In this document: positions 7,501 to 64,000 of the stretch, one piece after another
How the letters are laid out: each line of letters opens with the position of its first letter
Position numbering within the stretch: the stretch's first letter is position 1
IMG/VR virus record: IMGVR_UViG_3300036828_000667
Span: 1 to 64,000 of that record
Direction: 5' to 3' (one strand)
Origin: a virus
DNA length: 64,000 nt
Translations under genes and position numbers: made by a program
Notes under the pieces: generated by a model
The model's database searches: none
What the model was told of the DNA's origin: nothing
Seen by the model: the letters and a program-made list of their open reading frames with translations, nothing else

Positions 7501-9284
7501 ATCTCTAGTGTGGAGAAGAGCACTACCCTAACAGGACTAGTTCCCTTTGTGACACTCTCACCAACTTTGAACAAAAACGGCTTACTGGGACCTCGAATAA
7601 CTACTAACAAAACCGAGATGGCGTAGGGTAAAATCCTACTAATATATCTAATAAAAGAGATTACTTGGGACGACGTCAGCACAGTAGTTTTCGATACAAT
7701 AGCAGTTCTAGTGACTTTTTCTGGTGAAGAGAAAAGTCTAGTAAGAGATGGACTAGATAGCCTTGTAACAGATTCATGGACTGAGAATAAAATTGTTCTT
7801 CTTAAGCTTCTAGTAACTGCCAGCACAACAGAAATCGGGTTAACAACGACAGGTATCTTTTTAGTAGATAACTTGATACCAGTTACAAGCTGGGCAGACT
7901 TAATAGATAGCTTACCTGTAACGTTCTTCGTTACGAAGTTAGCCCCAGTGAGTGTAGAGTACGTAGATAGCGTCGATCTCAGTGCAATATTTGATTTAAA
8001 AGTCTGAACAGTAGCTATGCTGGTTTCAAATACTGAACTCAGCTTAGCTAAACCTTTAGCGATTCTAATAGTCTCATTAGAGTATATTGAAATCAGCTTA
8101 GCAGTCATTCCTCCAATGAACTTTTGAGAAACAACAGACACAGTCATACTAGGTATTGCTGTCGTTACTGTACCGGTACTAAAATCACTAGAAAAGTCTT
8201 TGTTGAAATCGCCTCCAGCGGTATCAACCATAAAGTCGGCAGAGTTAAAATCAATAGAGCTAAAATCAACAACACTACCGCCAGCACTACCGGCATTAGT
8301 AAACGATATTAGCTTAGAGAGCACTACCTTAATAGCTCTGATAGTCAATACACTAGTCTCGGTTATCGAAACTTGTTTCTGTCTAGCTAACATCCTAGCA
8401 GTTTGAAGTATTTCAGATGTAGCTATTGAAAGCTGTCTTTGTGTAACTGAGGCTATTATACGTTGAACAGTCAAGACTTCACGAGACTGTATCAGCAACT
8501 GCTTAATAGTAGATGTTCCAGTAAGTTTAGCGTAAATAATAGATACAGCCATACTAGGTATTACTGTCGTCGCTGTACCAGTACTAAAATCACTAGAAAA
8601 GTCTTTGTTGAAATCGCCTCCAGTACTAGACGTACCACTAGCACCAGCATTAGTAAATGATATTAGCTTAGGTAACTTCCTAATAGCTTGAAATATTTCA
8701 GACGTAGCTATTGAAAGCTGTCTCTGTGTAACCAAGGCTCTTATACGTTGGACAGTTAAGACTTCGCCAGAATACAACAACAGTTGTCTTACATTAGGTA
8801 TTCCGGTAAATTTAGCAGGAATAATAGATATAGTCATACTAGGTATAGTTGCTGTACCAGTACTAAAATCACTAGAAAAGTCTTTGTTGAAATCACCTCC
8901 AGTACTAGAAGCACCACCACCAGAATTGAGGAAGGATATCAGCTTTGATGTAGATGCTCCTACTACCTTAGCAGCTTGGACAGTAAACCTAACAGGTTGA
9001 GCAATCGAGATCAGCTTCGGTACATTAGCAGCTGTTCGCTTGACAGTTTGAACAGTTAATACACTTGAATGAGCAACCGAGATTAGCTTTGGTGTAACTA
9101 ACGCTTTTATTCGTTGGACAGTTAATACTGCACTAGAGTGTAACGAGACCAGCTTAGGAGTAGATGCCCCAGCACTGATCCTAGTGGCAGTGATAGATAC
9201 AATGCTTGACTCAGTAACCGCCAGTTTACCAGTTACATTTTTTGTTACTTGACTAGCCCCAGTGACTACCTGTCCAATGGGCAT
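4551..9284 (-). CDS. giant low-complexity S/T/I/V/K/R-rich repeat protein, probably virion-associated
   Basis: 1577 aa open frame, about 19-21 aa pseudo-period, three GGDFNKDFSSDFSTG motifs. Confidence 0.7.
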   Translation of the reverse strand: MPIGQVVTGASQVTKNVTGKLAVTESSIVSITATRISAGASTPKLVSLHSSAVLTVQRIKALVTPKLISVAHSSVLTVQTVKRTAANVPKLISIAQPVRFTVQAAKVVGASTSKLISFLNSGGGASSTGGDFNKDFSSDFSTGTATIPSMTISIIPAKFTGIPNVRQLLLYSGEVLTVQRIRALVTQRQLSIATSEIFQAIRKLPKLISFTNAGASGTSSTGGDFNKDFSSDFSTGTATTVIPSMAVSIIYAKLTGTSTIKQLLIQSREVLTVQRIIASVTQRQLSIATSEILQTARMLARQKQVSITETSVLTIRAIKVVLSKLISFTNAGSAGGSVVDFSSIDFNSADFMVDTAGGDFNKDFSSDFSTGTVTTAIPSMTVSVVSQKFIGGMTAKLISIYSNETIRIAKGLAKLSSVFETSIATVQTFKSNIALRSTLSTYSTLTGANFVTKNVTGKLSIKSAQLVTGIKLSTKKIPVVVNPISVVLAVTRSLRRTILFSVHESVTRLSSPSLTRLFSSPEKVTRTAIVSKTTVLTSSQVISFIRYISRILPYAISVLLVVIRGPSKPFLFKVGESVTKGTSPVRVVLFSTLEIITRRISLLKFVNVSSSSLVSLIKYVSRSISVTIGQVIKFFKSLRSKIIFSISSIVTELAPIYKYQASFVTNNLLTAKGYMTLRLMRTVQTGSLLVVSAVKGLHTLPVAIIQVFSSQVVSYASYVSKNVVIINSENFRFTKSLIVVRNFLSQETISSIKFSGRLSAFSMVQSLSISKNPYKIFGIVLSELMGITRAIPARVGVVLSQHLGITRVRQVVSTFFVSATATTSKVTNKIILLYTRVTKPKQYDLVFSYISKEAVTVRTALFKFIAPIVATMSSALSLVLFFQRGRVFPVLSSQIISTTRVSSFFRTLALTVSEAISIIRVPSSSINFATRESIIYIRVLNRLTLITSSISMLLTRARLSYFPQFLFGSSEVLSVLRIYIKTPSLITGQVFLIAKALPGSILVITNQIISTGKIIARIILDFSSEIVATTTSIQFTSFQNLVSMGQTLSLVAKQPAAQFRLVIQHSQLWKATERAVKIIQITSVSTFTSTKMIFKSSFSFSLSVVSSIIRSYTKIFGLVTNQPVKLIKLFYRIFNIQSVEQLRLVKSSIKVFSYITNEVTTSTNLIVKYITLISSYRLDFTKATNKLFSFITRPVMSFSRVGSKYFAFIQSSRTTVFRPAVYKVFNLSTVENVLIVVRTSHLVLFASSQLYSFTVVISKTLKVTIHELLQFVRTSKGKLFIDIDQTLDLIKSANWRTLVRTPERLTLSRVASKIIGFQEQIITISRSFTSRVLRIVTIVPITLTRVTNRSLGIRFIERISLAKALQKTIRISIHEIVKSLIGKPVIFTQHMLSSLRRTMLKPVRIVTDVHLAYVISTRKAKSIIVRSAQLFMLGKAVLKHIRITVSEKLSRNVTYYFVRVFYSPQKITRSFGYHKSVAIHWFETLFVSKTSLKSIRVRITSRLTVPRTTLKRIGFVVRNKVQQGIIYHRAMSWVTPVIATASTRYGKTFIIVQDSVISVFRKVRSLIQRAVILLTGA
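8176..8900. repeat. three copies of a 41-bp repeat encoding GGDFNKDFSSDFST
   Basis: gtactaaaatcactagaaaagtctttgttgaaatc(g/a)cctcc at 8176, 8581, 8860. Confidence 0.9.
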
Positions 9285-10096
9285 TAAAGTATTATCACTT
9301 TATTGATTGTCTTTGGGACACTCACTGACTCAGTAGACTGCATAGGCAATACCCTCCCCAGCTGAGCAGCCTTACTAAGGCTGACAAACTCAGGTGACGT
9401 AGAGCCTATAGTCTTATTAAGTCCCAAACGCTTTGATATAATCTCTGGCGAAGTAAAGTCATACTCACGTTGATAGGCAACAGCCGCAGGTTTGAACGAA
9501 ACCAGCATTACCGTAAAAGTCCGAGAAGTAATCGTTGGATTATAGGTAACTGAATTGGTAGAAGAAACAACAATAGATCCGCCTCTAACCGATACACTAT
9601 TATTTGCTGCTACTATACTATCAAATGGTATAGCCCAACCACTAGGTTGATTAAAAGTATCAGATGTCCCTGTAGTACCCGTATATACACAACCAAATAA
9701 AGCTTCATTAGATGAAGTTAGGGGTCCAGATGAAACCGATGGAGTAGTAGAAGTCCCGCCAACCAAAGCAGGGTTTGCATCAGTTAGAAAAGGACCACCT
9801 GTAACGGACCCGATAGCTAATGCAAGAGCACTAGCAGAAGAAGCTCTTGTCCAAGTTATCTTCTGACCAGCGTTTATTGCTATACAATTGTGACATACCC
9901 AAAGGTAAGCCCCACTACCCGAATTAAGTAACTGATAAGTATTTCCTACATCATCACCAAGAGAAACAGACGCTTGCCCTGAAATACCAGCAGCACAAAT
10001 CGAAGCCCCTGCTGGAATATTATTTGGTAACGTCCTAGATATAGTCAGTCCTGATAAAGCACTTGCACCTCCTTGGTCTGCAATTACTATCGCCAT
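9284..10096 (-). CDS. virion structural protein (beta-rich)
   Basis: S/T/G-rich, D..GNTY motif; C-terminus carries the S.E repeat style of its neighbour. Confidence 0.6.
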   Translation of the reverse strand: MAIVIADQGGASALSGLTISRTLPNNIPAGASICAAGISGQASVSLGDDVGNTYQLLNSGSGAYLWVCHNCIAINAGQKITWTRASSASALALAIGSVTGGPFLTDANPALVGGTSTTPSVSSGPLTSSNEALFGCVYTGTTGTSDTFNQPSGWAIPFDSIVAANNSVSVRGGSIVVSSTNSVTYNPTITSRTFTVMLVSFKPAAVAYQREYDFTSPEIISKRLGLNKTIGSTSPEFVSLSKAAQLGRVLPMQSTESVSVPKTINKVIIL

Positions 10097-16618: not shown

Positions 16619-16675
16619 GGTTACTCCAGAACAAGACGCTTGACATTGGGTCTAGGCATGGTACCGTGGCGATGT

Positions 16676-16760
16676 GCACACCGAACCGGAGCATACCTAC
16701 CCACGCCTTCCCGCGCCATTCCAAACCATACCCAACCTACCCTCACCACACCGCACCATA
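16676..16760 (+). ncRNA. pentamer element E1, 17 units
   Basis: (C/G)C-NNN x17; TTGACA 16640; ends CCACA CCGCA CCATA. Confidence 0.85.
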
Positions 16761-16777
16761 CTATTACCTAGTACATA

Positions 16778-17578
16778 CTACCCACTGTGAGGCAGGCTCA
16801 CCCCAACATTTGGAAGAACGGGCGAGACATCCGATGGACGCACCACACCAGCAGTCGCATTTGGCTGGACGTTCACGGGTGCGGTAACTGGCACTAAACC
16901 ACCAGCGTTCGGCCCTGTATAGTTGACTTGCTCGATATCAAGAATCGATACATTACTATAATCTTTTTCCTGTGCGACTCTCATAGCAATAGACTTGGCC
17001 TCTTCTGGAGAAGAAGCTCTAATCGATAGGTGCTCCGTTCGTGGCGTTTCTGTCTCCGGAGTCGAATACTGAATTTTCACGGCGAACGTATAGAGCCCTC
17101 CCGGAGCAGTGAGAGTAGGATCGTGACCTGCGAAGTCTTCACCAAACACAGCCACATGCACTGAACGCCTCATGGCATTTTCACTTATTTTCATGACTTG
17201 GGTTCCTGTCGTTACGATACAAGAATCACTGTAATGCGGTGACAGTTCCCAAGGAACATTAACACCGATATAGTTCAACGCTCTGGTGAGAATATCCCTA
17301 GGATTGTCTACACCGTATTGTTTAGCTAAAGTCCTAACCAAACTCCCTTGTGAGGTGTCATTGACCAAGGCCATGACATCCTCGACTGGCAAGTGATCTC
17401 CTCTTGCAATAGCATCAGTACTCGGATCACTAGGATCAGTATCAGGAGTACCAGGACGCTTAGACATCAGATGAATAGGGAGTGCATCTGAAAATGCGCA
17501 TATAAACTGGAAATCTCTTCGCGAGAAGTCATCTCCTAACATTCTTAATCTATCCCACACACGTAATGTCGTCACCAT
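16778..17578 (-). CDS. hypothetical protein (contains E1 match)
   Basis: 266 aa, GGAGA RBS. Confidence 0.75.
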   Translation of the reverse strand: MVTTLRVWDRLRMLGDDFSRRDFQFICAFSDALPIHLMSKRPGTPDTDPSDPSTDAIARGDHLPVEDVMALVNDTSQGSLVRTLAKQYGVDNPRDILTRALNYIGVNVPWELSPHYSDSCIVTTGTQVMKISENAMRRSVHVAVFGEDFAGHDPTLTAPGGLYTFAVKIQYSTPETETPRTEHLSIRASSPEEAKSIAMRVAQEKDYSNVSILDIEQVNYTGPNAGGLVPVTAPVNVQPNATAGVVRPSDVSPVLPNVGVSLPHSG

Positions 17579-17606: not shown

Positions 17607-18134
17607 CTACTCTACCCAGTTTTTACCACTCCGAATATAAGAAATCATAACATGACTAACTCCAAATTCTGCTGCTAAACTCGTATTAATACCCCAATAG
17701 TGAGAACGAGACCTAATATCATCAACTTGTGATCGCGTAAGCTTTGAATTGCCGTTGCGTTGACCTTTCCCACTAGTTCCGTGTTCAATCTGGTCTTTCA
17801 CATTTTTTTCATGAGTATCCCATTTAATATTTTCAGGCCAGCGGTTATCAGAAGGATTTCCATTAAGATGACGACATTCTTGCCCAGGTGGACAAGGACC
17901 ATAAAACGCATTCAGGATAAGAGCATGAACTCTATATGTCTCCAACTTCCTTTCTTCGCCCTTCCACCGTCCAACTGTCATATACCCATCAGAGTTAGAT
18001 GTTAATTTTCTAAACTCAATCTCTTTTATAGTACGATTCTTAAACCTTCCTCCAGGAAGTACCCTAACACGACCACGATTTGAGACCTGATGGAACGGCC
18101 AACTCTCGATATCTTTCCAAATCTCTTCAGTCAC
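17607..18134 (-). CDS. NUMOD4-HNH homing endonuclease
   Basis: EIWKDI..QVSNRGRVR; RVH.LI..AF; CRHLNGNPSDN; GTG start after AGGAGG. Confidence 0.88.
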   Translation of the reverse strand: MTEEIWKDIESWPFHQVSNRGRVRVLPGGRFKNRTIKEIEFRKLTSNSDGYMTVGRWKGEERKLETYRVHALILNAFYGPCPPGQECRHLNGNPSDNRWPENIKWDTHEKNVKDQIEHGTSGKGQRNGNSKLTRSQVDDIRSRSHYWGINTSLAAEFGVSHVMISYIRSGKNWVE

Positions 18135-18281
18135 TGTGATCCCTCCTAGTTTTACAGTCGTAGTTTTACAAACAGAAAAATCGGCGGCTGGCGGGAGACC
18201 GCCTTCCTCCGTCAAATAACCGCCAATCCATGGAGATTTAGTCCAACGTACTCCTGTTGTACGATCGACGCAAGAGGGAAT

Positions 18282-18767: not shown

Positions 18768-19411
18768 TGAGATCCACCGTTCTTGGCCAGCATGTTGGAA
18801 AGTTCACGTGGACTCTTGCTTAGGTCACTAGTGCCAGCATCAGTAGTATCAGGTGCAGACATCTGATTTTGTATTCCTGTTGTCCCTAGAAGGCTAGTAG
18901 CACCTGTAGTGAGAGAAGATTGGGGCGTTGTCGTAGGAGGGTTGATACCTATAGATGATTGATCTAAGCCAGGACTAATAGGAGGCCTATTCAGGTTATT
19001 GGGACCGACATCGCCGGTCTGATGTTGACCCGTCAAGGACGGTTGACGTAAGCCCGTAGGTGGCTCACTGGATACAGAATTCGTTGTAGTCGTAGATCGA
19101 CTAGAAATATTCCCTAGGTCAGTCGTAGGATTATCATCAGAATAAGTCTTACCAATAAGCTCTCTGAGAACGGAAGAAACTGGGGAAGAGAAACTGGTCA
19201 AGGACTCACCTCGCTTCCTGCTATAAAACGCCGCGAGAGCTTGTTGTCTACGCTTAGCCTTGGACTTTCCCTTAAATCTGGGATCATCGCTGTTAACGAA
19301 GTCCTTTATCCAGGCACCAGCACCACTAGACACTGATAAGGGCATATCTTTACTCCTAGTCACATTACTACGTTGACCAACCATATTAATTGTATTGAGA
19401 ATATAACGCAC
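18764..19411 (-). CDS. hypothetical protein, S/T/P-rich tail
   Basis: WIKDF..SD.P.FKGKSK..RR..ALAAFY motif. Confidence 0.7.
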   Translation of the reverse strand: MRYILNTINMVGQRSNVTRSKDMPLSVSSGAGAWIKDFVNSDDPRFKGKSKAKRRQQALAAFYSRKRGESLTSFSSPVSSVLRELIGKTYSDDNPTTDLGNISSRSTTTTNSVSSEPPTGLRQPSLTGQHQTGDVGPNNLNRPPISPGLDQSSIGINPPTTTPQSSLTTGATSLLGTTGIQNQMSAPDTTDAGTSDLSKSPRELSNMLAKNGGSQ

Positions 19412-19437
19412 TTAAACATACCTCATTTTCCAGAATG

Positions 19438-19724
19438 TCTCGGGCAAGAGGTATAAGGCAGCGCTGTCTCTAGTTGCCTCTACCTCTTGCCCGCCGTGGG
19501 TCCTTTAGAGGATATGCACTAGGAGCTTCTCGGGTTTATCCTCCAAAGGCACGGGAGTGATCTCGGACAAAGCAGCACAAGGTACAGATACCTTTCCAGA
19601 TGATTCCTTCCTTGTACTACTTTGTCCGCCGTGGTCCCGAAACTAGTATGCGAAAAACGATCACTTAGCACTACGAGCACTGCGAGTACCTTGTGAAATC
19701 GATTTCTAATTTCAGGCACGGGAG
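19438..19724 (-). ncRNA. candidate structured RNA with two tandem units
   Basis: CTCCCGTGCC-stem-GGAC(C)CACGGCGG-stem-CCGAGA twice; most stem mismatches are G-U on minus strand. Confidence 0.6.
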
Positions 19725-19726
19725 CT

Positions 19727-19918
19727 TCATTTAATAATCCGTTTCAAGTCAGGAACTTTCCTCTTATTTCGCAATCTCAATTCACTCAACCGGTTCATTA
19801 CCGCCCTTTCGTTACGTCCCCTTGAATTAAGAGACATAGCCAAACAGGCAGGATCTACCTTGACTTTGTCATTATGCCACTGCTTAAGAAATTCATCGTC
19901 CTCTTTAGACCACTTCAT
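19727..19918 (-). CDS. small HTH/Myb-like protein
   Basis: KWSKEDDEFL...R.ERAV..RL..L. Confidence 0.5.
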   Translation of the reverse strand: MKWSKEDDEFLKQWHNDKVKVDPACLAMSLNSRGRNERAVMNRLSELRLRNKRKVPDLKRIIK

Positions 19919-19919
19919 T

Positions 19920-20213
19920 TCACTTGGTCTCAGACTCCAGTGGACGTAATGGAGGTAATGGTACTGTTTCGGTTTCGTCCGATTGTAATCCGAAAGTGGT
20001 ATTACTTCTATTACCACTTATACATTGCGACAGTAATGTGTGAATTGACGCAAGATCACGACTACGTACATCAGCTTGCTTTACCAACGCAAAATAGATC
20101 AAGCCCAATAGAGCCATGTTCATGACTACTAGAGCAAGGGATAATGGCTGCGATTTAAGAGAATCCATGAAACTGGCAGCAGCCTTACCAGCCTCTTCAA
20201 CAGGACCAGTCAT
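19920..20213 (-). CDS. single-TM membrane protein
   Basis: hydrophobic LSLALVVMNMALLGLIYFAL. Confidence 0.6.
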   Translation of the reverse strand: MTGPVEEAGKAAASFMDSLKSQPLSLALVVMNMALLGLIYFALVKQADVRSRDLASIHTLLSQCISGNRSNTTFGLQSDETETVPLPPLRPLESETK

Positions 20214-20219
20214 TGGTTA

Positions 20220-20492
20220 TCATCCTGTAGGATGCTTAGAAGCATCTTCAGGTGTCTTTGCCTTATGGTGTTCTTCAGGTGCTTTTGCTTTATGGTCTTC
20301 AGGCTTCTTTGCCTTTACAGGCTCCTCGGGCGGGGGAGGCTCAACATGAACCGGGTAGACCGGCTGATCGTCAACGCCCTCGGGCTGATCGCCGAGCGTG
20401 TGGATCACGGGCCTAATCATCTCGTCCCGAGAATGACGATATTCTGGGAACCCACCATCAGCACCCACGATCTTTTCAACGTATTGAGCCAT
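20220..20492 (-). CDS. P/E/K-rich hypothetical protein (contains E2 match)
   Basis: AGGAGA RBS. Confidence 0.7.
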   Translation of the reverse strand: MAQYVEKIVGADGGFPEYRHSRDEMIRPVIHTLGDQPEGVDDQPVYPVHVEPPPPEEPVKAKKPEDHKAKAPEEHHKAKTPEDASKHPTG

Positions 20493-20546
20493 TGGTCATC
20501 TCCTTTGTTGACAAGACTACCTCAATAGGTGTTAAAAGCTTCTTCT

Positions 20547-20611
20547 ACGGACCATTCCGATCCGAAGCCAGCCCCACCGTGCCTATCCCCTCCCCAGCGA
20601 ACCGAACCACA
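20547..20611 (+). ncRNA. pentamer element E2, 12-13 units
   Basis: TTGACA 20508; CC-NNN register; ends CCGAA CCACA. Confidence 0.82.
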
Positions 20612-20846
20612 CACACTTTATCACGATCACACACTATCCTGGGGCACGTCTCTAACTCTAGTCCAAGAATCACTACTCTTGGTATAGAACCAAACGCTAG
20701 CGTCGTCACACAAAGCGACTATCGGATTAACTTCGGACCCCTGTGAAACCTGGACAACTTTTCTAGTCTTACCAGGAGGATTAGGTTGCTGAGGTGCCAT
20801 GTTCATCCAACCTTCTATCCATACGCGTGTCATCATGACCTTGTCC

Positions 20847-21083
20847 TTAGATGGTGTGGCGTATTAAATACTTTCCAACTAGAAAACATAGTTCATTTAC
20901 TATCAGACAGGTAACAATCACTGTAATGCCAGTAAGAGTACCAACACCCGCTTTCTGCAATAGAACGGCAGCAACAATTGCAAGTACCAACCCAAGGAGG
21001 ACAAGTACTACCAATGAGCGCTGAAGTCCTTGTAGAAAGCCCGTGACTCCGCTTATCCCTAGTAACGTAAAGGTAAGTTTCAT
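20847..21083 (-). CDS. small membrane protein
   Basis: two or three hydrophobic segments. Confidence 0.55.
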   Translation of the reverse strand: MKLTFTLLGISGVTGFLQGLQRSLVVLVLLGLVLAIVAAVLLQKAGVGTLTGITVIVTCLIVNELCFLVGKYLIRHTI

Positions 21084-21104
21084 ATTGTTTCCCCATTGTT
21101 ACAG

Positions 21105-24100
21105 TCACGCAGCCATTTTAGTTTTAAAGGTGTACTCAATACGCCCTTTAACTGTAATATAAGCAGATGGATCAGCTGACCTAATCCATACGATCTCACG
21201 ATCGGCTATCAAGTGTATATCGCCTTGATTGTCTACCGAGTATGGCATAGTCGGAGTGATATCAAGTGATGGAGTATATGCTATGAAACACTCACCACGT
21301 CTGACTTCAAGAACTATGCCTATTGCAATATCTTGAACTAATCCAGACGCTATAGGTATCCAATCGCCCTTGACGTTGATCCACTCAAACGACAACATTC
21401 CCCCAGGCTGGAGGAAGTTTGGAAGATACCAGAATTTATTGGTAACGTATCCCCAGACTTGAGAAGTCTTAATATAAGCTAGAACACCACGTAGCTTACC
21501 AGCAATCGTAGTAACCAACGATCTACTATATAGAGATAGAGTTAGATAGACTGATCTAGATCCTTGGACAACCTGTGTCTGAGAAAGACGGATTAGTACC
21601 TCAATAGCAGTTTTAAGGAAATTCTGATTGATAACGATATTGACAATATGAGCCACAGTACCCTTAACTAATAAAATAGAAGAGTCGTATATCAATACGA
21701 TCTTAGCACGGTTCGGCCTGGGAAGCAAGAGGATTTCCCCTGAGACAAGGCCTACCCTCTTGACGACCGAAACAAGTCGCTGCACACTCTCAGCCTGAAT
21801 AAACGACACCAGCCTTCTGGCAATAGAGCTTCTCGTTATAATCTGAGACTGGAAGAGTAAGAACTGGCGAAGAGACGATCTGAGAGAGACCAACGTCTCT
21901 GGACTTACTACAGACAAAGACCTTGTAAATAGCTTACCAAAAGAACTGGTTAACACCCCATGACTAACAAACGTAGCTAGCCTGGACAACAGCTTAACAG
22001 CAGACACCAACTCAGATTGAGTCACAGCAATGATTCGACTTGGTATCTTTCCTATCGCAACGACACTAGAGTTTATAAAAGAGAGTGTCCTGTAGAATGA
22101 GACCATAGCAACTCTAGTAACAATCTCAGGATGCAATATGGATACGGTTTTTAGAAATGCTCTTTGGTTAAACTGAGTAACCACTTCGTGGCTAACGAAG
22201 GAAGCCAGTCTACCTGTCAGTCTAATCAATGAGTAGAGTTGAGACTGAGTGAGTGTTGTAAGCCGACCGACAACCCTAGAGACCGAAGCGACCTGCGACT
22301 GAGCAAATACTGCTAGCTCTGGACGCGTAACCTGACGAGTAATCAGTTGTCCAATCAGTGTAGACAAGGTCTTAAAAAATGCCTTCTGATTGAACTGAGT
22401 TACAATCTCGGGACTAGAGAACTGTTTGATCCTACTAAATACCTTAACTAGACTAATAGCTTCACTTGAAACCAGAGACCTTATACTAGTAATCGCTCTA
22501 GCGGACGACAGTATCTGAGACTGTTGAAATATCCCGTAAGCTGTATTCCTGGTAGACATAAGTATGGATATAGCTGTATGAACTATTATAGTTCTACTTG
22601 TCAAAGTTATATGTGTAATGAATTCTCCAGTCGAGAAGGTAAAGGTTTTGGTAGTTGAAATTGCCCTAGTGAAAATTTGTGGATTCGTAGTTAGAATCGA
22701 CTGTAGTTTAGTTCTGATAGCTGAATAAGTCAGAACTTCTGCGAGTGTAGTCTTGACGATCTTAACAGCCTGACGTACGGCTGTAAGAGCTTCACTGCTG
22801 GTAGCGACGATCGACCGAGTGACAACCCTAACTAAGAAGACGGCTTCAGAGCTAGCCAACGTCAACATACGCGAAGACAGCCTAACCAGAGACAAGAATT
22901 CAGAACTGGTTAAGGTAACAGTCCTAAAGAACGTTTTGATTTGACTTAAAGACAAACTCTCACTAATCGATAGGGTAACTACTCTAAACCTACTAGAGAC
23001 CCTGGCTAATGTCAGAGACTCAGGACTTGCAGTAGTTATAACATGAGAAACACTACCTATAACATCTGCATACAATTCAGAACTAGTAATAGATATTGTA
23101 CGTAGTAAGCTCTTGACTCTAGTCAGGGTTAATACTTCATTGGTAATCACTGTTATAATACGGGAAATACTACCTATTACGTCTGCATACAATTGAGAGC
23201 TAACAAGAGATATGAGTTTTTGGTTTACTACTACACCGGACTGAAACTGCGTAACTGCAGTTACTAGTTCTCCAATCGAGAATACCCTGAATCTACCAGG
23301 AATCTTAGCTAGTGTAAGTGTTTCTCCACTAACGACAGCTACGATATGTGAAATGCTACGTATTATACCAGCATACAATTCAGAGCTAGTAAGAGTTATG
23401 GTACGTAGTAAGCTCTTGACTCTAGTCAGGGTTAATACTTCACTGCTAGTAACTATTATAATATGAGAAATACTACCTATAACATCTGCATACAATTGAG
23501 AGCTAGTAAGATATATCGTGCGTAGTAGACTCTTAATTCTAGTCAGAGTCAGTACTTCATTGCTAGTCACTGTTATGATATGAGAAACACTATCTATTAC
23601 ATCAGAGTAGAATTCGGAACTGGTAATAGATACGATATGAATATACTGTCTAACTGTAGTTATCGTCTCGACTATCGACAACGTGATTGTTCTAAACTTA
23701 CTTGAAATCCTAGCGAGTGTAAGTATCTCTGGACTAGAAATCTGTAAGAACTTGGCAGTAATCTTTGCAGTAACTCTAGAGACTAATTCAGGATCGACGA
23801 AGACCAGCATCTTAGTAACTGATCTAATAAGATACACAGCCGAAGAATTGAAGAAAACCGTAACTCTCGATATGCTCATAACAAATTTTGATAGACTAGG
23901 TTGAATAACAAGTAACTTACCTGTTACGTTCTTATTAACGAAGTTAGCCCCAGTAATCATAGAAAGCATAGGGTTAATCGTAACAAGCTTTCGAGTACCA
24001 AAGGTTTGATACGTTGGAATAGCAGTTAGTGTCTCCGCAATCGACAACGTAACCGTCCTAAACCTACTAGAAATGCTGAATAGCGTAAACGCCTCTGGAT

Positions 24101-25025
24101 TAAATACGCCTAAAACTCTAGATATATTCGATATCCTAGTAAGACTCTCAGAACTCGTTAAAGTTATTGTCCTAAAACTCTGTACAGATCGTATACCAGT
24201 AACTACCTGATGTGAAGTTATAGTAGTAATTGCTTTCTGACGTAGAATAGATCGTATACCAGTAACTGCCGGATGTGAAGTTATAGTAGTAATTGCTTTC
24301 TGACGTAGAATAGATCGTATACCAGTAACTGCCAGATGCAAAGGTGCAACTGTTATCGGCAGTTGGGTTACAACTGGACCACCACCACCAGAAAAATCAG
24401 GTGTAACAATAGTAGCTGTACCAATTCTAAATAGTACGTCAGAGCTACCGTTAGCACTTGCTGTAGTCAGTACCCATTCAAGCTGAATGAACAAATACTC
24501 ATTACTCAATACTATAGGAGATCCGCTGTTCATAACAATCGTTATACTAGAATTAGTGTCTACAGTAGTTGATAAGGTAATATTCGCACATTGAAAAGTT
24601 GCTTGTAACTTAGTAGCTGCAGAACCATCGGCATTTGCCGATTTCCATACCTGGGCAGCAATATTCCCAATAGCGCCAGCTACAGTAGCACGCATATTAA
24701 AATTAAAAGTCCAAGCTGTGCCTGCAAAAGTACCTGTATATGCCGGAGTTATAAAACTATCACCAGCCCCAGCATTAGTAGCATCACTACCTTTTGTTGG
24801 ACCGGAAGAAAAAATACCAATTGGATCAGTAAAAGCAGAAGCTGAAGAAGTAGATGATGCGCCTAACCTAGAAGCAAAATATGGCGTACTAGTAGAAGTA
24901 GTACCTACAAGCCAGCCATAGGTGGAGTTGGCTGCAGTCGGAGCAGTACCGCCATCTTGTAATTGACCAAAGAAATTAGGTGACGGAGCAGCCGTACCAA
25001 GGATATACAGTGTTTTAATAGCCAC
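21105..25025 (-). CDS. second giant S/T/I/V/R-rich repeat protein with globular N-domain
   Basis: 1306 aa; T.TSSE.LT repeats; shares TGANFV.KNVTGKL with 4551-9284. Confidence 0.72.
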   Translation of the reverse strand: MAIKTLYILGTAAPSPNFFGQLQDGGTAPTAANSTYGWLVGTTSTSTPYFASRLGASSTSSASAFTDPIGIFSSGPTKGSDATNAGAGDSFITPAYTGTFAGTAWTFNFNMRATVAGAIGNIAAQVWKSANADGSAATKLQATFQCANITLSTTVDTNSSITIVMNSGSPIVLSNEYLFIQLEWVLTTASANGSSDVLFRIGTATIVTPDFSGGGGPVVTQLPITVAPLHLAVTGIRSILRQKAITTITSHPAVTGIRSILRQKAITTITSHQVVTGIRSVQSFRTITLTSSESLTRISNISRVLGVFNPEAFTLFSISSRFRTVTLSIAETLTAIPTYQTFGTRKLVTINPMLSMITGANFVNKNVTGKLLVIQPSLSKFVMSISRVTVFFNSSAVYLIRSVTKMLVFVDPELVSRVTAKITAKFLQISSPEILTLARISSKFRTITLSIVETITTVRQYIHIVSITSSEFYSDVIDSVSHIITVTSNEVLTLTRIKSLLRTIYLTSSQLYADVIGSISHIIIVTSSEVLTLTRVKSLLRTITLTSSELYAGIIRSISHIVAVVSGETLTLAKIPGRFRVFSIGELVTAVTQFQSGVVVNQKLISLVSSQLYADVIGSISRIITVITNEVLTLTRVKSLLRTISITSSELYADVIGSVSHVITTASPESLTLARVSSRFRVVTLSISESLSLSQIKTFFRTVTLTSSEFLSLVRLSSRMLTLASSEAVFLVRVVTRSIVATSSEALTAVRQAVKIVKTTLAEVLTYSAIRTKLQSILTTNPQIFTRAISTTKTFTFSTGEFITHITLTSRTIIVHTAISILMSTRNTAYGIFQQSQILSSARAITSIRSLVSSEAISLVKVFSRIKQFSSPEIVTQFNQKAFFKTLSTLIGQLITRQVTRPELAVFAQSQVASVSRVVGRLTTLTQSQLYSLIRLTGRLASFVSHEVVTQFNQRAFLKTVSILHPEIVTRVAMVSFYRTLSFINSSVVAIGKIPSRIIAVTQSELVSAVKLLSRLATFVSHGVLTSSFGKLFTRSLSVVSPETLVSLRSSLRQFLLFQSQIITRSSIARRLVSFIQAESVQRLVSVVKRVGLVSGEILLLPRPNRAKIVLIYDSSILLVKGTVAHIVNIVINQNFLKTAIEVLIRLSQTQVVQGSRSVYLTLSLYSRSLVTTIAGKLRGVLAYIKTSQVWGYVTNKFWYLPNFLQPGGMLSFEWINVKGDWIPIASGLVQDIAIGIVLEVRRGECFIAYTPSLDITPTMPYSVDNQGDIHLIADREIVWIRSADPSAYITVKGRIEYTFKTKMAA
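24186..24330. repeat. 63-bp in-frame tandem repeat, about 2.3 copies
   Basis: agatcgtataccagtaact at 24186, 24249, 24312. Confidence 0.9.
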
Positions 25026-40176: not shown

Positions 40177-40258
40177 GACCGTCTATCCCATCCGAACCAG
40201 TCCAATCCTATCCTATGCACACCGCACAGAATGACCTAAGAGAAATCTTAGGTCATTC
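40177..40258 (+). ncRNA. pentamer element E5 (8-10 units) with GAAA-loop hairpin
   Basis: TTGACT 40148; GCACA CCGCA; 13-bp stem 40229-40258. Confidence 0.85.
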
Positions 40259-40263
40259 GCTTT

Positions 40264-40476
40264 TCAATCAGTGTCATAACCATCTGCGCTATAGTAGTTA
40301 TTTTCGTGGTACGGACACTCTTCTCTCATGAGAGCTAAGCAACGGCGAATAGATGCACTGCTTGTCCCATAGGACTCAACCACGTGGTCGCACCTTGAAC
40401 AAGTAACCTTGACACTGGGAACTTCCCCGTGATCACCTTCCAATTCGATTTCATCTATGGTACATTTTACCTTCAT
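40264..40476 (-). CDS. small Cys-rich protein (contains E5 match)
   Basis: CSRC, RRCL..MREECP. Confidence 0.7.
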   Translation of the reverse strand: MKVKCTIDEIELEGDHGEVPSVKVTCSRCDHVVESYGTSSASIRRCLALMREECPYHENNYYSADGYDTD

Positions 40477-40729: not shown

Positions 40730-40811
40730 GCGAGCCAAACCGGTCCACTCCACGCCCCTCCTTCGCTTACCGATCCACACAGAATGGCCTGAGAGAAATC
40801 TTGGGCCATTC
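40730..40811 (+). ncRNA. pentamer element E6 (10 units) with GAAA-loop hairpin
   Basis: TTGACT 40695-N17-TACTAT; stem 40782-40811 with two G-U pairs. Confidence 0.85.
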
Positions 40812-47325: not shown

Positions 47326-47390
47326 TGCGGTTTGGTATGCTGTGGGCCGGCACGGCTGGGGGTGGCGCGGGAAGGCTTGGCATGGCTTGC
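47326..47390 (-). ncRNA. pentamer element E11, 13 units
   Basis: TTGACT(-) 47421-47426 N17 TAGTCT. Confidence 0.88.
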
Positions 47391-47433
47391 ACCAAAAAGA
47401 CTACTACCAAACTTACCGCTAGTCAACCACTAT

Positions 47434-47847
47434 TTACCTGATACGCTGCACTAAGCAACCTTCCGATTTTGCCTGCCACGTCCCACACCACTGGCCAGCT
47501 TCAACAGGTCGCAAGATCCACTTTCGTGAATATTCCCAGATCGGAACGACCTTTTTTTCCATGACCTTCTGGCCGTTCTCGTCTAAGACGAGTTTGTTCT
47601 TTTCACCCCGCTTAGACCGTGAGATTTCCTGTGTCCCGACTTGCGTGGCAAATTTCATTTTGACCGCGGACACAGCTGAACCCAAAGTTTTCATGGGATC
47701 GGGCATCTTCTCGGTCTTAGCTGCGAAGAAGCTCTGTCCGACGCCCAATTTATCAAGAGGATATTTGGCGACCCCATTACGGTTACCACGTTTCGACTTC
47801 GGCATTTCCACCGCGTCGATGATTTCAAACGTCACTTGCTCTTCCAT
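47434..47847 (-). CDS. putative DNA-binding phage protein (contains E10 and E11 matches)
   Basis: KYPLDKLGVGQSFF motif. Confidence 0.75.
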   Translation of the reverse strand: MEEQVTFEIIDAVEMPKSKRGNRNGVAKYPLDKLGVGQSFFAAKTEKMPDPMKTLGSAVSAVKMKFATQVGTQEISRSKRGEKNKLVLDENGQKVMEKKVVPIWEYSRKWILRPVEAGQWCGTWQAKSEGCLVQRIR

Positions 47848-63314: not shown

Positions 63315-63410
63315 CCTCCCTTTTGTGTGACCATAAAGTTACACTTAAATTGAATCTGATTCTGGGAATTGACCTGCCAAGGCTGATAGGCGAAAACTCA
63401 TATTGCAAGG

Positions 63411-63514
63411 TCGAACCGCTGCCTTGCTTGCCAAACCGGGCCAAGCCGGCGCGGACCAAACCTCCGCACACCGCACAATGGGAGTAGTCAAATGGCTTGC
63501 AGACTACTCCCATT
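63411..63514 (+). ncRNA. pentamer element E17 (13 units) with 3' hairpin
   Basis: TTGACC 63369; GCACA CCGCA; stem 63477-63514. Confidence 0.88.
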
Positions 63515-63533: not shown

Positions 63534-64000
63534 ATGCTAATTTCAGTCACGATCTCCGGAATCCGACCTTTAATCCTCGACGCGTTTTCCGAGGAAGCGT
63601 TGCTTAAGGGGAAGGGAGGAAAGAGTACAGCCCAGCCCAAGGAACTGAGTCCCTTGGATCAAGCCAAGCGTAGGTTATACTATAATGGAGATGGTACCGA
63701 CGTTCCTATATTCCCAGCAGACAACCTACTCAGCTGTATCATCGCTGCCGGGCGGTTTATCAAGGTCGGGAAAAGGCAACTAACTACTCGCGACAGTACG
63801 ACAGTAACTTCATTCCTACAGATATCAGAACTATATCTTCCCATTAGGTCGATAGATGGATGGCGAGTCGACTCCAGGAGCATCGTCAACCCGTCTACAA
63901 AAGGTCGTCACATATGCTACCGTCCCATCTTTGACGACTGGGAGTTAGATTTCACGCTCGACATCGATACGAATGAAGCGAGCGACAGCTTGGTTAGACA
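63534..64000 (+). CDS. RAMP/Cas7-like protein, truncated by the window end (not in ORF track)
   Basis: AGGAG RBS; MLISVTISGIRPLIL..., PIFPADNLLSCI, D.R.IV...GRH..YRPIFDDWELDFTL.ID; no stop to 64000. Confidence 0.7.
   Translation, partial: MLISVTISGIRPLILDAFSEEALLKGKGGKSTAQPKELSPLDQAKRRLYYNGDGTDVPIFPADNLLSCIIAAGRFIKVGKRQLTTRDSTTVTSFLQISELYLPIRSIDGWRVDSRSIVNPSTKGRHICYRPIFDDWELDFTLDIDTNEASDSLVR

Follow-up and report, generated by a model that had tools for sequence, protein, structure and literature searches.

A probable stand-alone VIPR guide RNA gene in a soil phage, matching rival alleles of the gene beside it

VIPR systems were described only in 2026, and what is known of their natural biology comes mainly from one E. 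coli phage and its satellite. According to the accessible text of two preprints (bioRxiv 10.64898/2026.04.26.720920, 10.64898/2026.04.26.720927), Vipr, a minimal RAMP protein with a G-loop and a thumb, forms polymers on guide RNAs (vrRNAs) made of GGY-NN units, in which the GGY is hidden and the NN is presented. The same source text reports that the NN pairs with double-stranded DNA and that every third target base is skipped, this base being the wobble position in natural targets (bioRxiv 10.64898/2026.04.26.720920). Binding silences transcription and is aimed at satellites and rival phages, as stated in the available sections of three 2026 preprints. The published cut-off for a VIPR target is a bioinformatic one, 0.8 NN identity. 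The satellite preprint, in its accessible part, admits decoy sites down to 0.72 identity, and the corresponding part of the discovery preprint gives no self hits at 80% or more (bioRxiv 10.64898/2026.04.26.720920). Solo or orphan vrRNAs, as far as the available text of a further preprint goes, target the vipr or vrRNAs of relatives and spare their own locus (bioRxiv 10.64898/2026.10.15.759431).

The window analysed here is a stretch of 64,000 nucleotides, positions 1 to 64,000 of IMG/VR record IMGVR_UViG_3300036828_000667, and belongs to a soil phage genome of 113,838 bp. It contains most of a vipr gene (Table 1). The predicted protein matches phrog_4652 (E 2e-16), which itself matches SUSP1 vipr at 2e-98. 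It also matches PDB 36pp, the SUSP1 Vipr, with an E value of 4.7e-5 as a single sequence and of 2e-12 over nearly the full length when a 31-member clade profile is used. The YRPIF motif and the G-loop G-x-G-x-x-R-P are conserved. One array precedes vipr and a dense run of arrays follows; directly after vipr there are arrays and a 66-aa truncated Vipr paralog. Arrays of the same type as the one studied here in most detail (E2) number 17 in the window, compared to about 0.15 in shuffles. The whole genome has 27 arrays with 377 units, all located between 16.6 and 68.3 kb. Position 5 of these units is C in 97% and position 4 is C in 79% and G in 19%, while positions 1–3 are variable; only two scaffold positions are strongly fixed. 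On the basis of the Vipr homology, the 27 period-5 arrays where essentially none are expected, and a codon-phased skip of one nucleotide (described below), the system is identified as VIPR. No tRNA genes were found in the genome by ARAGORN and no Rfam families in the window, and no CRISPR-type identical repeats with unique spacers were seen, the units being 5 nt long and without identical repeats.

E2 consists of the pentamers GGAcc ATTcc GATcc GAAgc CAGcc CCAcc GTGcc TATcc CCTcc CCAgc GAAcc GAAcc. The leading triplets of these units read GIDEQPVYPPEE, and the dinucleotides presented would be GG AT GA GA CA CC GT TA CC CC GA GA. A reading of the arrays as 'codon + CC' peptide coding (by quintuplet decoding, editing or reverse translation) was considered and dropped, because the VIPR skip rule accounts for the apparent dinucleotide decoding as well as for the codon phase, and no exotic coding has to be assumed. 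None of the 12 units has lost its scaffold, and each has C at position 5. Upstream there is a −35-like hexamer, followed by a weak −10 (GTTAAA / TGTTAAAA at 20530–20537); a strict consensus promoter scan did not flag this promoter. Neither a hairpin nor a terminator is present downstream. Two soil-metagenome DNA runs carry the vipr/array locus at 97–99% of sampled words, and contigs of both runs span the E2 region with zero differences, so E2 is not an assembly artefact. On balance we consider E2 to be probably a stand-alone vrRNA gene of the VIPR system of this 113.8-kb phage, with which rival alleles would be silenced in co-infection.

Table 1. Coordinates of the arrays, genes and sites discussed (window numbering).
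Feature	Position	Strand	Remarks
E1 array, 17 units	16673–16757	+	Replicate case
E1 resident near-target	17057–17107	−	In ORF 16778–17578; 27/34 bases
ORF with near-target of E2, 90 aa	20220–20492	−	Divergent from E2
Resident near-target of E2, codons 39–50 (GVDDQPVYPVHV)	20343–20378	−	19/24 bases, 8/12 units
E2 −35-like hexamer TTGACA	20508–20513	+	41 nt before first pentamer
E2 array, 12 pentamers	20549–20608	+	vrRNA-type, NN-N-(C/G)-C
E2 unit 3′ end, ACACACAC + TTTAT	20609–20621	+	Fits family consensus R-Y-A-C followed by T-rich stretch
Array 40184	40184–40223	+	Promoter; clean intrinsic terminator 40229–40258 (+); near-match to neighbour at 40288–40311 (−)
Array 47329	47329–47393	−	Units 2–11 match resident neighbour 47626–47664 (−) at 10/10
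Array 63413	63413–63472	+	vipr leader; TTGACC at 63369 before; hairpin and vipr RBS after
vipr, 213 aa	63534–64175 (window to 64000)	+	RAMP-family; expected to coat guides

The gene next to E2 has no Pfam or PHROG family matches. Its codons 39–57 read GVDDQPVYPVHVEPPPPEE. The initial annotation, made from the sequence alone, had noted that the first two codon bases agree with the guide at 8 of its first 9 units (20352–20378), and this count is correct. Over units 1–10 the resident near-target agrees at 17/20 bases. The site is the sole position with 17/24 or more in the 113,838-bp genome, both strands having been searched. Shuffled guides reach 19/24 at a rate of 4.4e-8 per position, which corresponds to about 9e-5 expected within ±500 nt.

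The initial annotation went on to propose that E2 is aimed at an allele without the seven codons VHVEPPP (PVYP|PEE), so that an insertion would shield the resident copy, and pointed to a PEE in the resident gene seven codons after YP. The PEE is indeed there (codons 55–57), but it is unspecific, being one of four equivalent sites: in-frame CCn-GAn-GAn occurs at codons 55, 64, 72 and 81 of the Pro/Glu-rich tail, and the downstream PEE therefore carries no weight. Homologues of the gene were aligned, namely four close ones (P0002–P0005) and four distant ones (P0115, P0117, P0118 and L004). The distant search was exhaustive and profile-free over 1.8 billion representatives and gave three more homologues, to which one metagenome locus was added; IMG/VR DNA gave no homologues of the E2 target gene, and one metagenome scan gave two distant loci only. 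PVYPPEE occurs in none of the eight homologues, and the segment between YP and PPPEE is kept in all eight and also in a DNA variant that co-occurs with this phage (see below). In that variant GIEDQPVYPP is followed by HVEPPPPEEP, identical to the resident, and there is no deletion. Guide units 10–12 (P,E,E) align on the residues right after Y-P, which are P-H-V or P-H-I in the close relatives and P-D-E, P-D-Q or P-N-E in the distant ones. This makes the resident V-H-V a variant by substitution and not the start of an insertion. It is true that the Y-P-P-D-E of distant homologues equals units 8–12 under the code. However, it lies at the homologous position straight after YP and does not span a deletion, and an extra Thr in these proteins breaks the register with units 1–7 (17/24). 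Moreover, the full 12-unit skip-rule pattern has no exact match in IMG/VR, nor has the 10-unit pattern. An insertion as the basis of protection is consequently very improbable, and the resident differs from the guide by point substitutions. Self/non-self discrimination at E2 would come down to two or three of these. The other part of the proposal, namely a non-self allele as the better target and a resident copy that deviates from the guide, is borne out by the allele scores below.

The last two units of E2 deserve separate comment. The final unit is constrained across the 27 arrays: all 27 have a purine at position 1 and 26 of 27 have A at position 3, with only five NN types represented. Agreement with resident genes is 44% for the last two units and 79% for internal units. 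Given this constraint and the poor matching, the GAACC GAACC of E2 may be a conserved 3′ end instead of guide.

Alleles can be scored from protein, because every residue involved fixes the first two codon bases; P0002–P0005 are known as proteins, and the single DNA-level read-out is 30 nt long. The resident allele, GVDDQPVYPV, scores 17/20 over units 1–10 and 19/24 over 12 units. The P0004 allele, GIEDQPVYPP, scores 20/20 and 22/24, the P0005 allele, GIDDQPVYPP, 20/20 and 21/24, and the P0002 allele 19/20 and 21/24. I and P are found at units 2 and 10, respectively, in three of the four close homologues, and the majority state is that of the guide. For the DNA-level check the two soil runs were mapped on 20100–20900 at 80% identity. 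One of them (X1), which also has this phage, yielded a 150-nt contig at a depth of 4.2 (10–12 for the resident) that is identical to the window over 20319–20348 and then diverges. The next 30 letters of this variant (record 3), reverse-complemented, are GGC ATT GAG GAT CAG CCC GTG TAC CCC CCG, which translates to GIEDQPVYPP. It agrees with E2 units 1–10 at 20/20 NN bases and at just 3/10 third bases, in line with the skip rule. Other short contigs that diverge stack on 20319–20398, indicating that several alleles coexist there. Two matches to the 10-unit pattern in 596 Gb of genomes fall in unrelated proteins, with about one expected by chance, and were rejected as targets. A megablast of 19000–23000 against phages gave no matches.

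Unit 2 (I to V, A to G), unit 10 (P to V) and the 3′-terminal units 11–12 are where the resident and the guide disagree; units 11–12 are mismatched in the best non-self alleles as well. In SUSP1 the R-loop starts at the 3′-proximal units and runs 3′ to 5′, according to the accessible text of the preprint (bioRxiv 10.64898/2026.04.26.720927), and for this reason the 3′-proximal mismatches of the resident could be especially protective.

E2 might alternatively be a relic, that is, a guide whose former match to the local gene, or to an ancestor of that gene, has been eroded by drift and which now has no function. The weak −10 and the missing terminator would fit this, and so would the agreement of the guide with most homologues, which is expected of an ancestral copy. 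A decaying array would not be expected to retain its scaffold in 12/12 units, nor a −35 and a 3′ motif like those of the other arrays, and the co-occurrence of an exact 20/20 target in the same sample also speaks against decay. We regard a relic as improbable.

On the basis of these observations, the following mechanism is proposed. By homology with SUSP1, copies of Vipr would coat the E2 RNA, one protomer per 5-nt unit, each hiding three scaffold bases and presenting two. The presented dinucleotides would pair with double-stranded DNA while skipping every third base, which is the codon wobble, and transcription would be silenced. Read in this way E2 would spell G-I-(D/E)-(D/E)-(Q/H)-P-V-Y-P-P, an allele present in related phages, including one from the same soil sample. 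Since E2 spells a non-self allele from which the resident differs at units 2, 10 and 11–12, it is most likely that rival alleles would be silenced during co-infection and that the resident would be spared by point substitutions, with no indel involved. What the sequences show directly is the array with its statistics, the Vipr homology and the allele matches; for E2 itself we infer transcription and its strand, formation of the RNP, silencing and immunity of the resident. The resident gene may in fact not be immune, since its score of 0.79 overall, or 0.85 over units 1–10, sits at the published 0.8 cut-off.

When all arrays were decoded against every reading frame, several were found to spell a stretch of a gene 65–300 nt away, far more than in unit-shuffled controls. 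The guide and its near-target are separated by this distance in at least seven cases. All significant matches are codon-phased on positions 1–2, and the third bases are uncorrelated. The array E1 serves as a replicate. Its score against the resident gene is given in Table 1; the alleles of relatives score 29–31/34 (P0014), 28–30/34 (P0012) and 26–28 (P0006; 93% identical overall), and the resident mismatches E1 exactly where the alleles of relatives have M/I. At the level of sequence, E1 thus repeats the pattern of E2, in that non-self alleles fit better than the resident. One 42-kb contig has both P0005 and P0007, and so combines an E2-sensitive allele with an E1-resistant allele, a mix that is expected in a mosaic population. 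IMG/VR searches with the single sequences of the E1 and 47329 target genes found none.

Other arrays are closer to their own neighbours. The scores against resident genes are 0.85 for array 47329, 0.83 for 63413, 0.85 for 64185 and 0.88 for 40184, all above the published cut-off of 0.8. The near-self guides further include 40727 and 68198. With its 10/10 internal match, array 47329 is not an 'escaped' case. Array 63413 spells vipr codons 21–32, with mismatches only at Leu, Leu and Ser codon families (CTT/TTG, TCC/AGT), and for both vipr-directed guides, 63413 and 64185, the resident vipr is the best match among 95 homologues. These scores and the 10/10 match fit self-regulation better than rivalry; the best match of the vipr-directed guides, the short distance between guide and near-target, and the decoy sites of the satellite preprint would be compatible with it. 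Under self-regulation the next-door guides, E2 among them, would be programmable repressors with which the phage dampens or times expression of the adjacent resident gene through partial complementarity, and vipr would be autoregulated by its two flanking guides. E2 and E1, however, fit the alleles of other phages better, precisely where the resident differs, and a regulator that tracks its own gene should do the opposite. Similarly, the differences between array 63413 and the resident vipr are codon-family switches only, which resembles evasion and not tuning. Self-regulation as the general role is therefore doubtful, though it is the rival role to which we give most credit. For the near-self guides 47329, 63413 and 64185, either the closer rivals are unsampled or some of these guides regulate resident genes.

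The layout was compared with that of two relatives. G001 is a complete 47.6-kb phage whose Vipr is 62% identical. Its guides are in one tandem array and match neither G001 itself nor the phage described here, and the E2 pattern is absent from G001. Among the phages examined, the dispersed arrangement of guides next door to their near-targets thus appears particular to this phage. G003, a relative of 147.5 kb, has no vipr and no arrays, and the E1 guide has no match to the G003 allele.

The grammar of the units cannot decide which strand is transcribed, because the two patterns are reverse complements of each other. SUSP1 has its published GGY-NN units on the vipr strand with a 3′ tail after them, a layout that was confirmed in the SUSP1 sequence. 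In the phage described here NN-N-(C/G)-C is read in the direction of vipr, which makes the G-rich strand the antisense one. On the C-scaffold strand, 14 of the 27 arrays have a TTGAC 32–44 nt upstream and a fifteenth has one at −68, whereas the expectation is 0.098 per 70-nt window, or about 2.6 by chance; the other strand has it in 3/27. The 15 arrays that bear it are essentially all those that are not internal to a tandem run. If TTGAC is followed by a 17-nt spacer and a −10, transcription is predicted to start on the first unit. Two arrays have textbook terminators behind them on the C-scaffold strand, and array 63413 has its promoter on one side and the vipr RBS on the other.

A survey of 80 Vipr-clade loci, sorted by unit composition and by flanks, provides a further comparison. 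A tally of array orientation by an NNN-(C/G)-C filter was discarded as confounded, since canonical NN-GG-C units pass the filter too. In Vipr relatives at 28–45% identity the arrays are canonical GG(C/T)-NN or G-relaxed NN-N-G-C, and most of them lie on the vipr strand. In locus L013 the order is promoter, array, RBS and vipr, as it is here. The NNN-(C/G)-C array of L014 ends 13 nt 5′ of the vipr ATG, and arrays abut the vipr RBS in this phage, in L007/L012 and in L014. The terminal units of the relatives, R-N-G-G-C / R-N-G-G, parallel the R-N-A-C-C / R-Y-A-C found here on the same strand, and the A/T-rich spacers between units are likewise parallel on the same strand. Taken together, the promoter and terminator geometry, the placement of array 63413 and the layout of the clade make it probable that the C-scaffold strand is the vrRNA.

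In the opposite-strand reading the functional RNA would be G-rich, a canonical 'NNNGG'-type vrRNA with a conserved 5′ end, and TTGACA would serve some other purpose. All vrRNAs confirmed by sequencing are GGY-NN, and on that strand the units are G at 97% and G at 79%, giving G-(G>C)-N-N-N, which is close to the published 'NNNGG'. The units of L006 are near-canonical GGC-NN there, and the arrays would be co-directional with the flanking genes in the 16–41 kb region. The geometry of promoters and terminators is contrary to this reading, as are the abutment of arrays on the vipr RBS and the homology of the layout with canonical relatives on the C-scaffold strand; furthermore, the RNA would then be conserved at its 5′ end and hypervariable in its 3′ flank, the reverse of the published architecture. 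Hairpin energies and G-U asymmetry on the two strands were mixed. Transcription of the G-rich strand is considered unlikely.

If the C-scaffold strand is the vrRNA, the sequences suggest that the transcribed scaffold is N-(C>G)-C and not GGY. The accessible text of the discovery preprint gives the alternative repeats YNNNG, NNNGG and NNNNG, which share with the arrays described here a relaxed scaffold within a 5-nt frame. L013, L037 and others, with 37–45% Vipr identity, have NN-N-G-C, which is YNNNG. In this phage the retained G has mostly become C (79% C, 19% G), a state absent from the corresponding text of the discovery preprint. If the arrays were oriented by G content in that preprint, C-scaffold arrays would show there as 'NNNGG' on the opposite strand. 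The sequences would then point to a subclade in which both guanines have been replaced and the pyrimidine kept. The V and M found here at the positions of D177 and W178 (see below) are consistent with altered base reading.

The combination of a guide with a slightly mismatched resident gene leads us to propose, tentatively, that each pair could form a linked 'weapon plus resistant target' cassette, and that the whole might amount to an RNA-guided drive at the level of alleles, acting at many loci through one shared Vipr and a C-based scaffold. In co-infections the guide would silence rival versions of the gene beside it, and as the two elements are just 65–300 nt apart, recombinants would retain the guide and the resistant allele together. 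This is possible, but less probable than the role suggested above for E2 itself.

The VIPR class, the skip rule, the wobble logic, guides against the vipr of relatives, and self-matches that are weaker than non-self matches are all already published, as the accessible preprint text makes clear. Two features are absent from that text: a C-based scaffold, for which it offers NNNGG, YNNNG and NNNNG as the sole alternatives to GGY, and guides that adjoin a resident homologue of their target. The deployment seen here is one of many single-guide genes, scattered and each beside the phage's own version of the apparent target, with at least one exact rival allele in the same sample as the phage. If this interpretation is true, RNA-guided silencing would serve competition between alleles of ordinary phage genes, beyond satellites or rival VIPR loci, and the linkage of guide and resistant allele would be a simple route for variants to spread in mosaic phage populations. 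The apparent change from GGY to N-C-C in one Vipr clade would matter for motif searches and for the way in which Vipr reads RNA.

The closest described systems are the type II VIPR of SUSP1 and of a Pseudomonas fulva prophage. They share with this locus a lone RAMP-family Vipr, 5-nt units with two presented bases, a 1-nt skip at the codon wobble, targets in other phages, and one array upstream and several downstream of vipr. The identity to SUSP1 Vipr is only about 22%. The SUSP1 residues D177 and W178, reported to read guanine, are V and M here, whereas R138 and the G-loop Arg-Pro are conserved. The scaffold is GGY in SUSP1 and, on the inferred RNA strand, N-(C>G)-C here. The SUSP1 clade has a 3′ pseudoknot tail, in place of which the arrays here have R-N-A-C-C / R-Y-A-C and then a T-run or hairpin. 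Beside vipr, which is directly followed by arrays and the truncated paralog, no vap gene was recognised. Unlike in the SUSP1 system, most guides of this phage are spread over 50 kb as separate genes, apparently each with its own promoter.

The solo or orphan vrRNAs of VIPR-null SUSP1-like phages, as described in the available text (bioRxiv 10.64898/2026.10.15.759431), are likewise directed against close relatives, with a self-match lower than the non-self match, and include vipr-directed guides at early and late codons, like arrays 63413 and 64185. In the accessible part of that study (bioRxiv 10.64898/2026.10.15.759431) the candidate target regions are never covered by the phage's own homology, whereas here a resident homologue adjoins the guide. 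Class 1 CRISPR crRNA–Cas7 backbones resemble the system in that RAMP proteins form a filament on a guide, with bases flipped at regular intervals, and in that nucleic-acid recognition is programmable; the phage-encoded system described here differs in its 5-nt rather than 6-nt period and its gapped target, and appears to be without a repeat–spacer array or adaptation genes. Finally, toxin–antitoxin and homing-endonuclease cassettes offer an analogy only, in that a harmful agent is linked to a resistant version of its own target. Compared to such poison–antidote cassettes, the harmful agent in this phage would be an RNA guide that depends on a shared protein whose gene lies at a distance of 43 kb, with both toxicity and drive being hypothetical.

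Decoded, the guide in the vipr leader gives a peptide identical to residues 21-32 of Vipr, the RAMP-family protein encoded immediately downstream. Mismatches at codon positions 1 and 2 occur only at two Leu residues and one Ser, and each is a swap between the residue's two codon families. Synonymous evasion of a guide that skips the wobble base is possible only by such codon-family switches.

Two further guides lie near matching resident sequence (see table). In the guide close to the phrog_7597-family gene, all of the internal units match (10/10), and mismatches fall only at the opening unit and at the last two units of the 3' end. This guide could represent true self-targeting or self-regulation. 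The 18-unit guide has a near-match of 0.78 at a site 115 nt away, which is antisense inside a 518-aa minus-strand ORF; adjoining near-targets are therefore found on either gene strand.

An exact 10-unit match to E2, the 12-unit array at 20549-20608 (+), was found under the skip rule in a Solirubrobacterales MAG (L101, 2339-2367), where GIDDQPVYPP occurs in a 634-aa secreted protein. Beyond this peptide the protein shows no similarity, and its DNA is 63% GC. Chance alone would give about one exact match of this kind in the collection searched.

Features of the phage genome discussed here
Feature	Position (strand)	Associated site or remark
1306-aa ORF	window 21105-25025 (-)	adjoins E2 neighbourhood
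HNH-type homing-endonuclease-like ORFs	window 17607-18215 (-); genome 66253-66807 (-)	assigned by sequence motifs only
Paralogous terminator hairpins	window 40229-40258; 40782-40811	downstream of arrays 40184 and 40727, respectively
Guide	window 47329-47393 (-)	near resident gene, phrog_7597 family; site 47626-47664 (-)
vipr-leader guide	window 63413-63472	matching site 63594-63629, vipr residues 21-32 (EALLKGKGGKST)
66-aa ORF within array cluster	genome 64949-65149 (L001 2950-3150), outside window	phrog_4652, E 1.9e-9
18-unit guide	genome 68198-68287 (+), outside window	near-target 68402-68455 (+)

Degenerate internal repeats, each about 20-25 aa long (…SSE.LTL.R…SHI…), make up most of the 1306-aa ORF, which has no match in PHROG and probably encodes a fibre-like virion protein. 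The putative homing endonucleases sit between structural genes and close to the vipr locus. On the basis of its phrog_4652 match, the 66-aa ORF is a shortened Vipr paralogue corresponding to the C-terminal half, which bears the G-loop. The second terminator hairpin differs from its paralogue by two A-to-G changes, after which pairing on the + strand is kept only as G-U; this counts slightly in favour of + strand transcription.

In a related phage of 47.6 kb (IMGVR_UViG_3300036791_000741, 8733-9986), about 13 guides form a single tandem array immediately after vipr, each starting with CAGCC and separated by a constant ACAGGCGA. None of them matches that genome or the present one. Many of 80 further loci (L011-L090) carry arrays on both strands relative to vipr, which implies that arrays act as independent units. 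These 80 loci belong to a single Vipr clade, yet their scaffold shifts from the published GG(C/T) through N-G-C to the N-(C>G)-C of the present phage.
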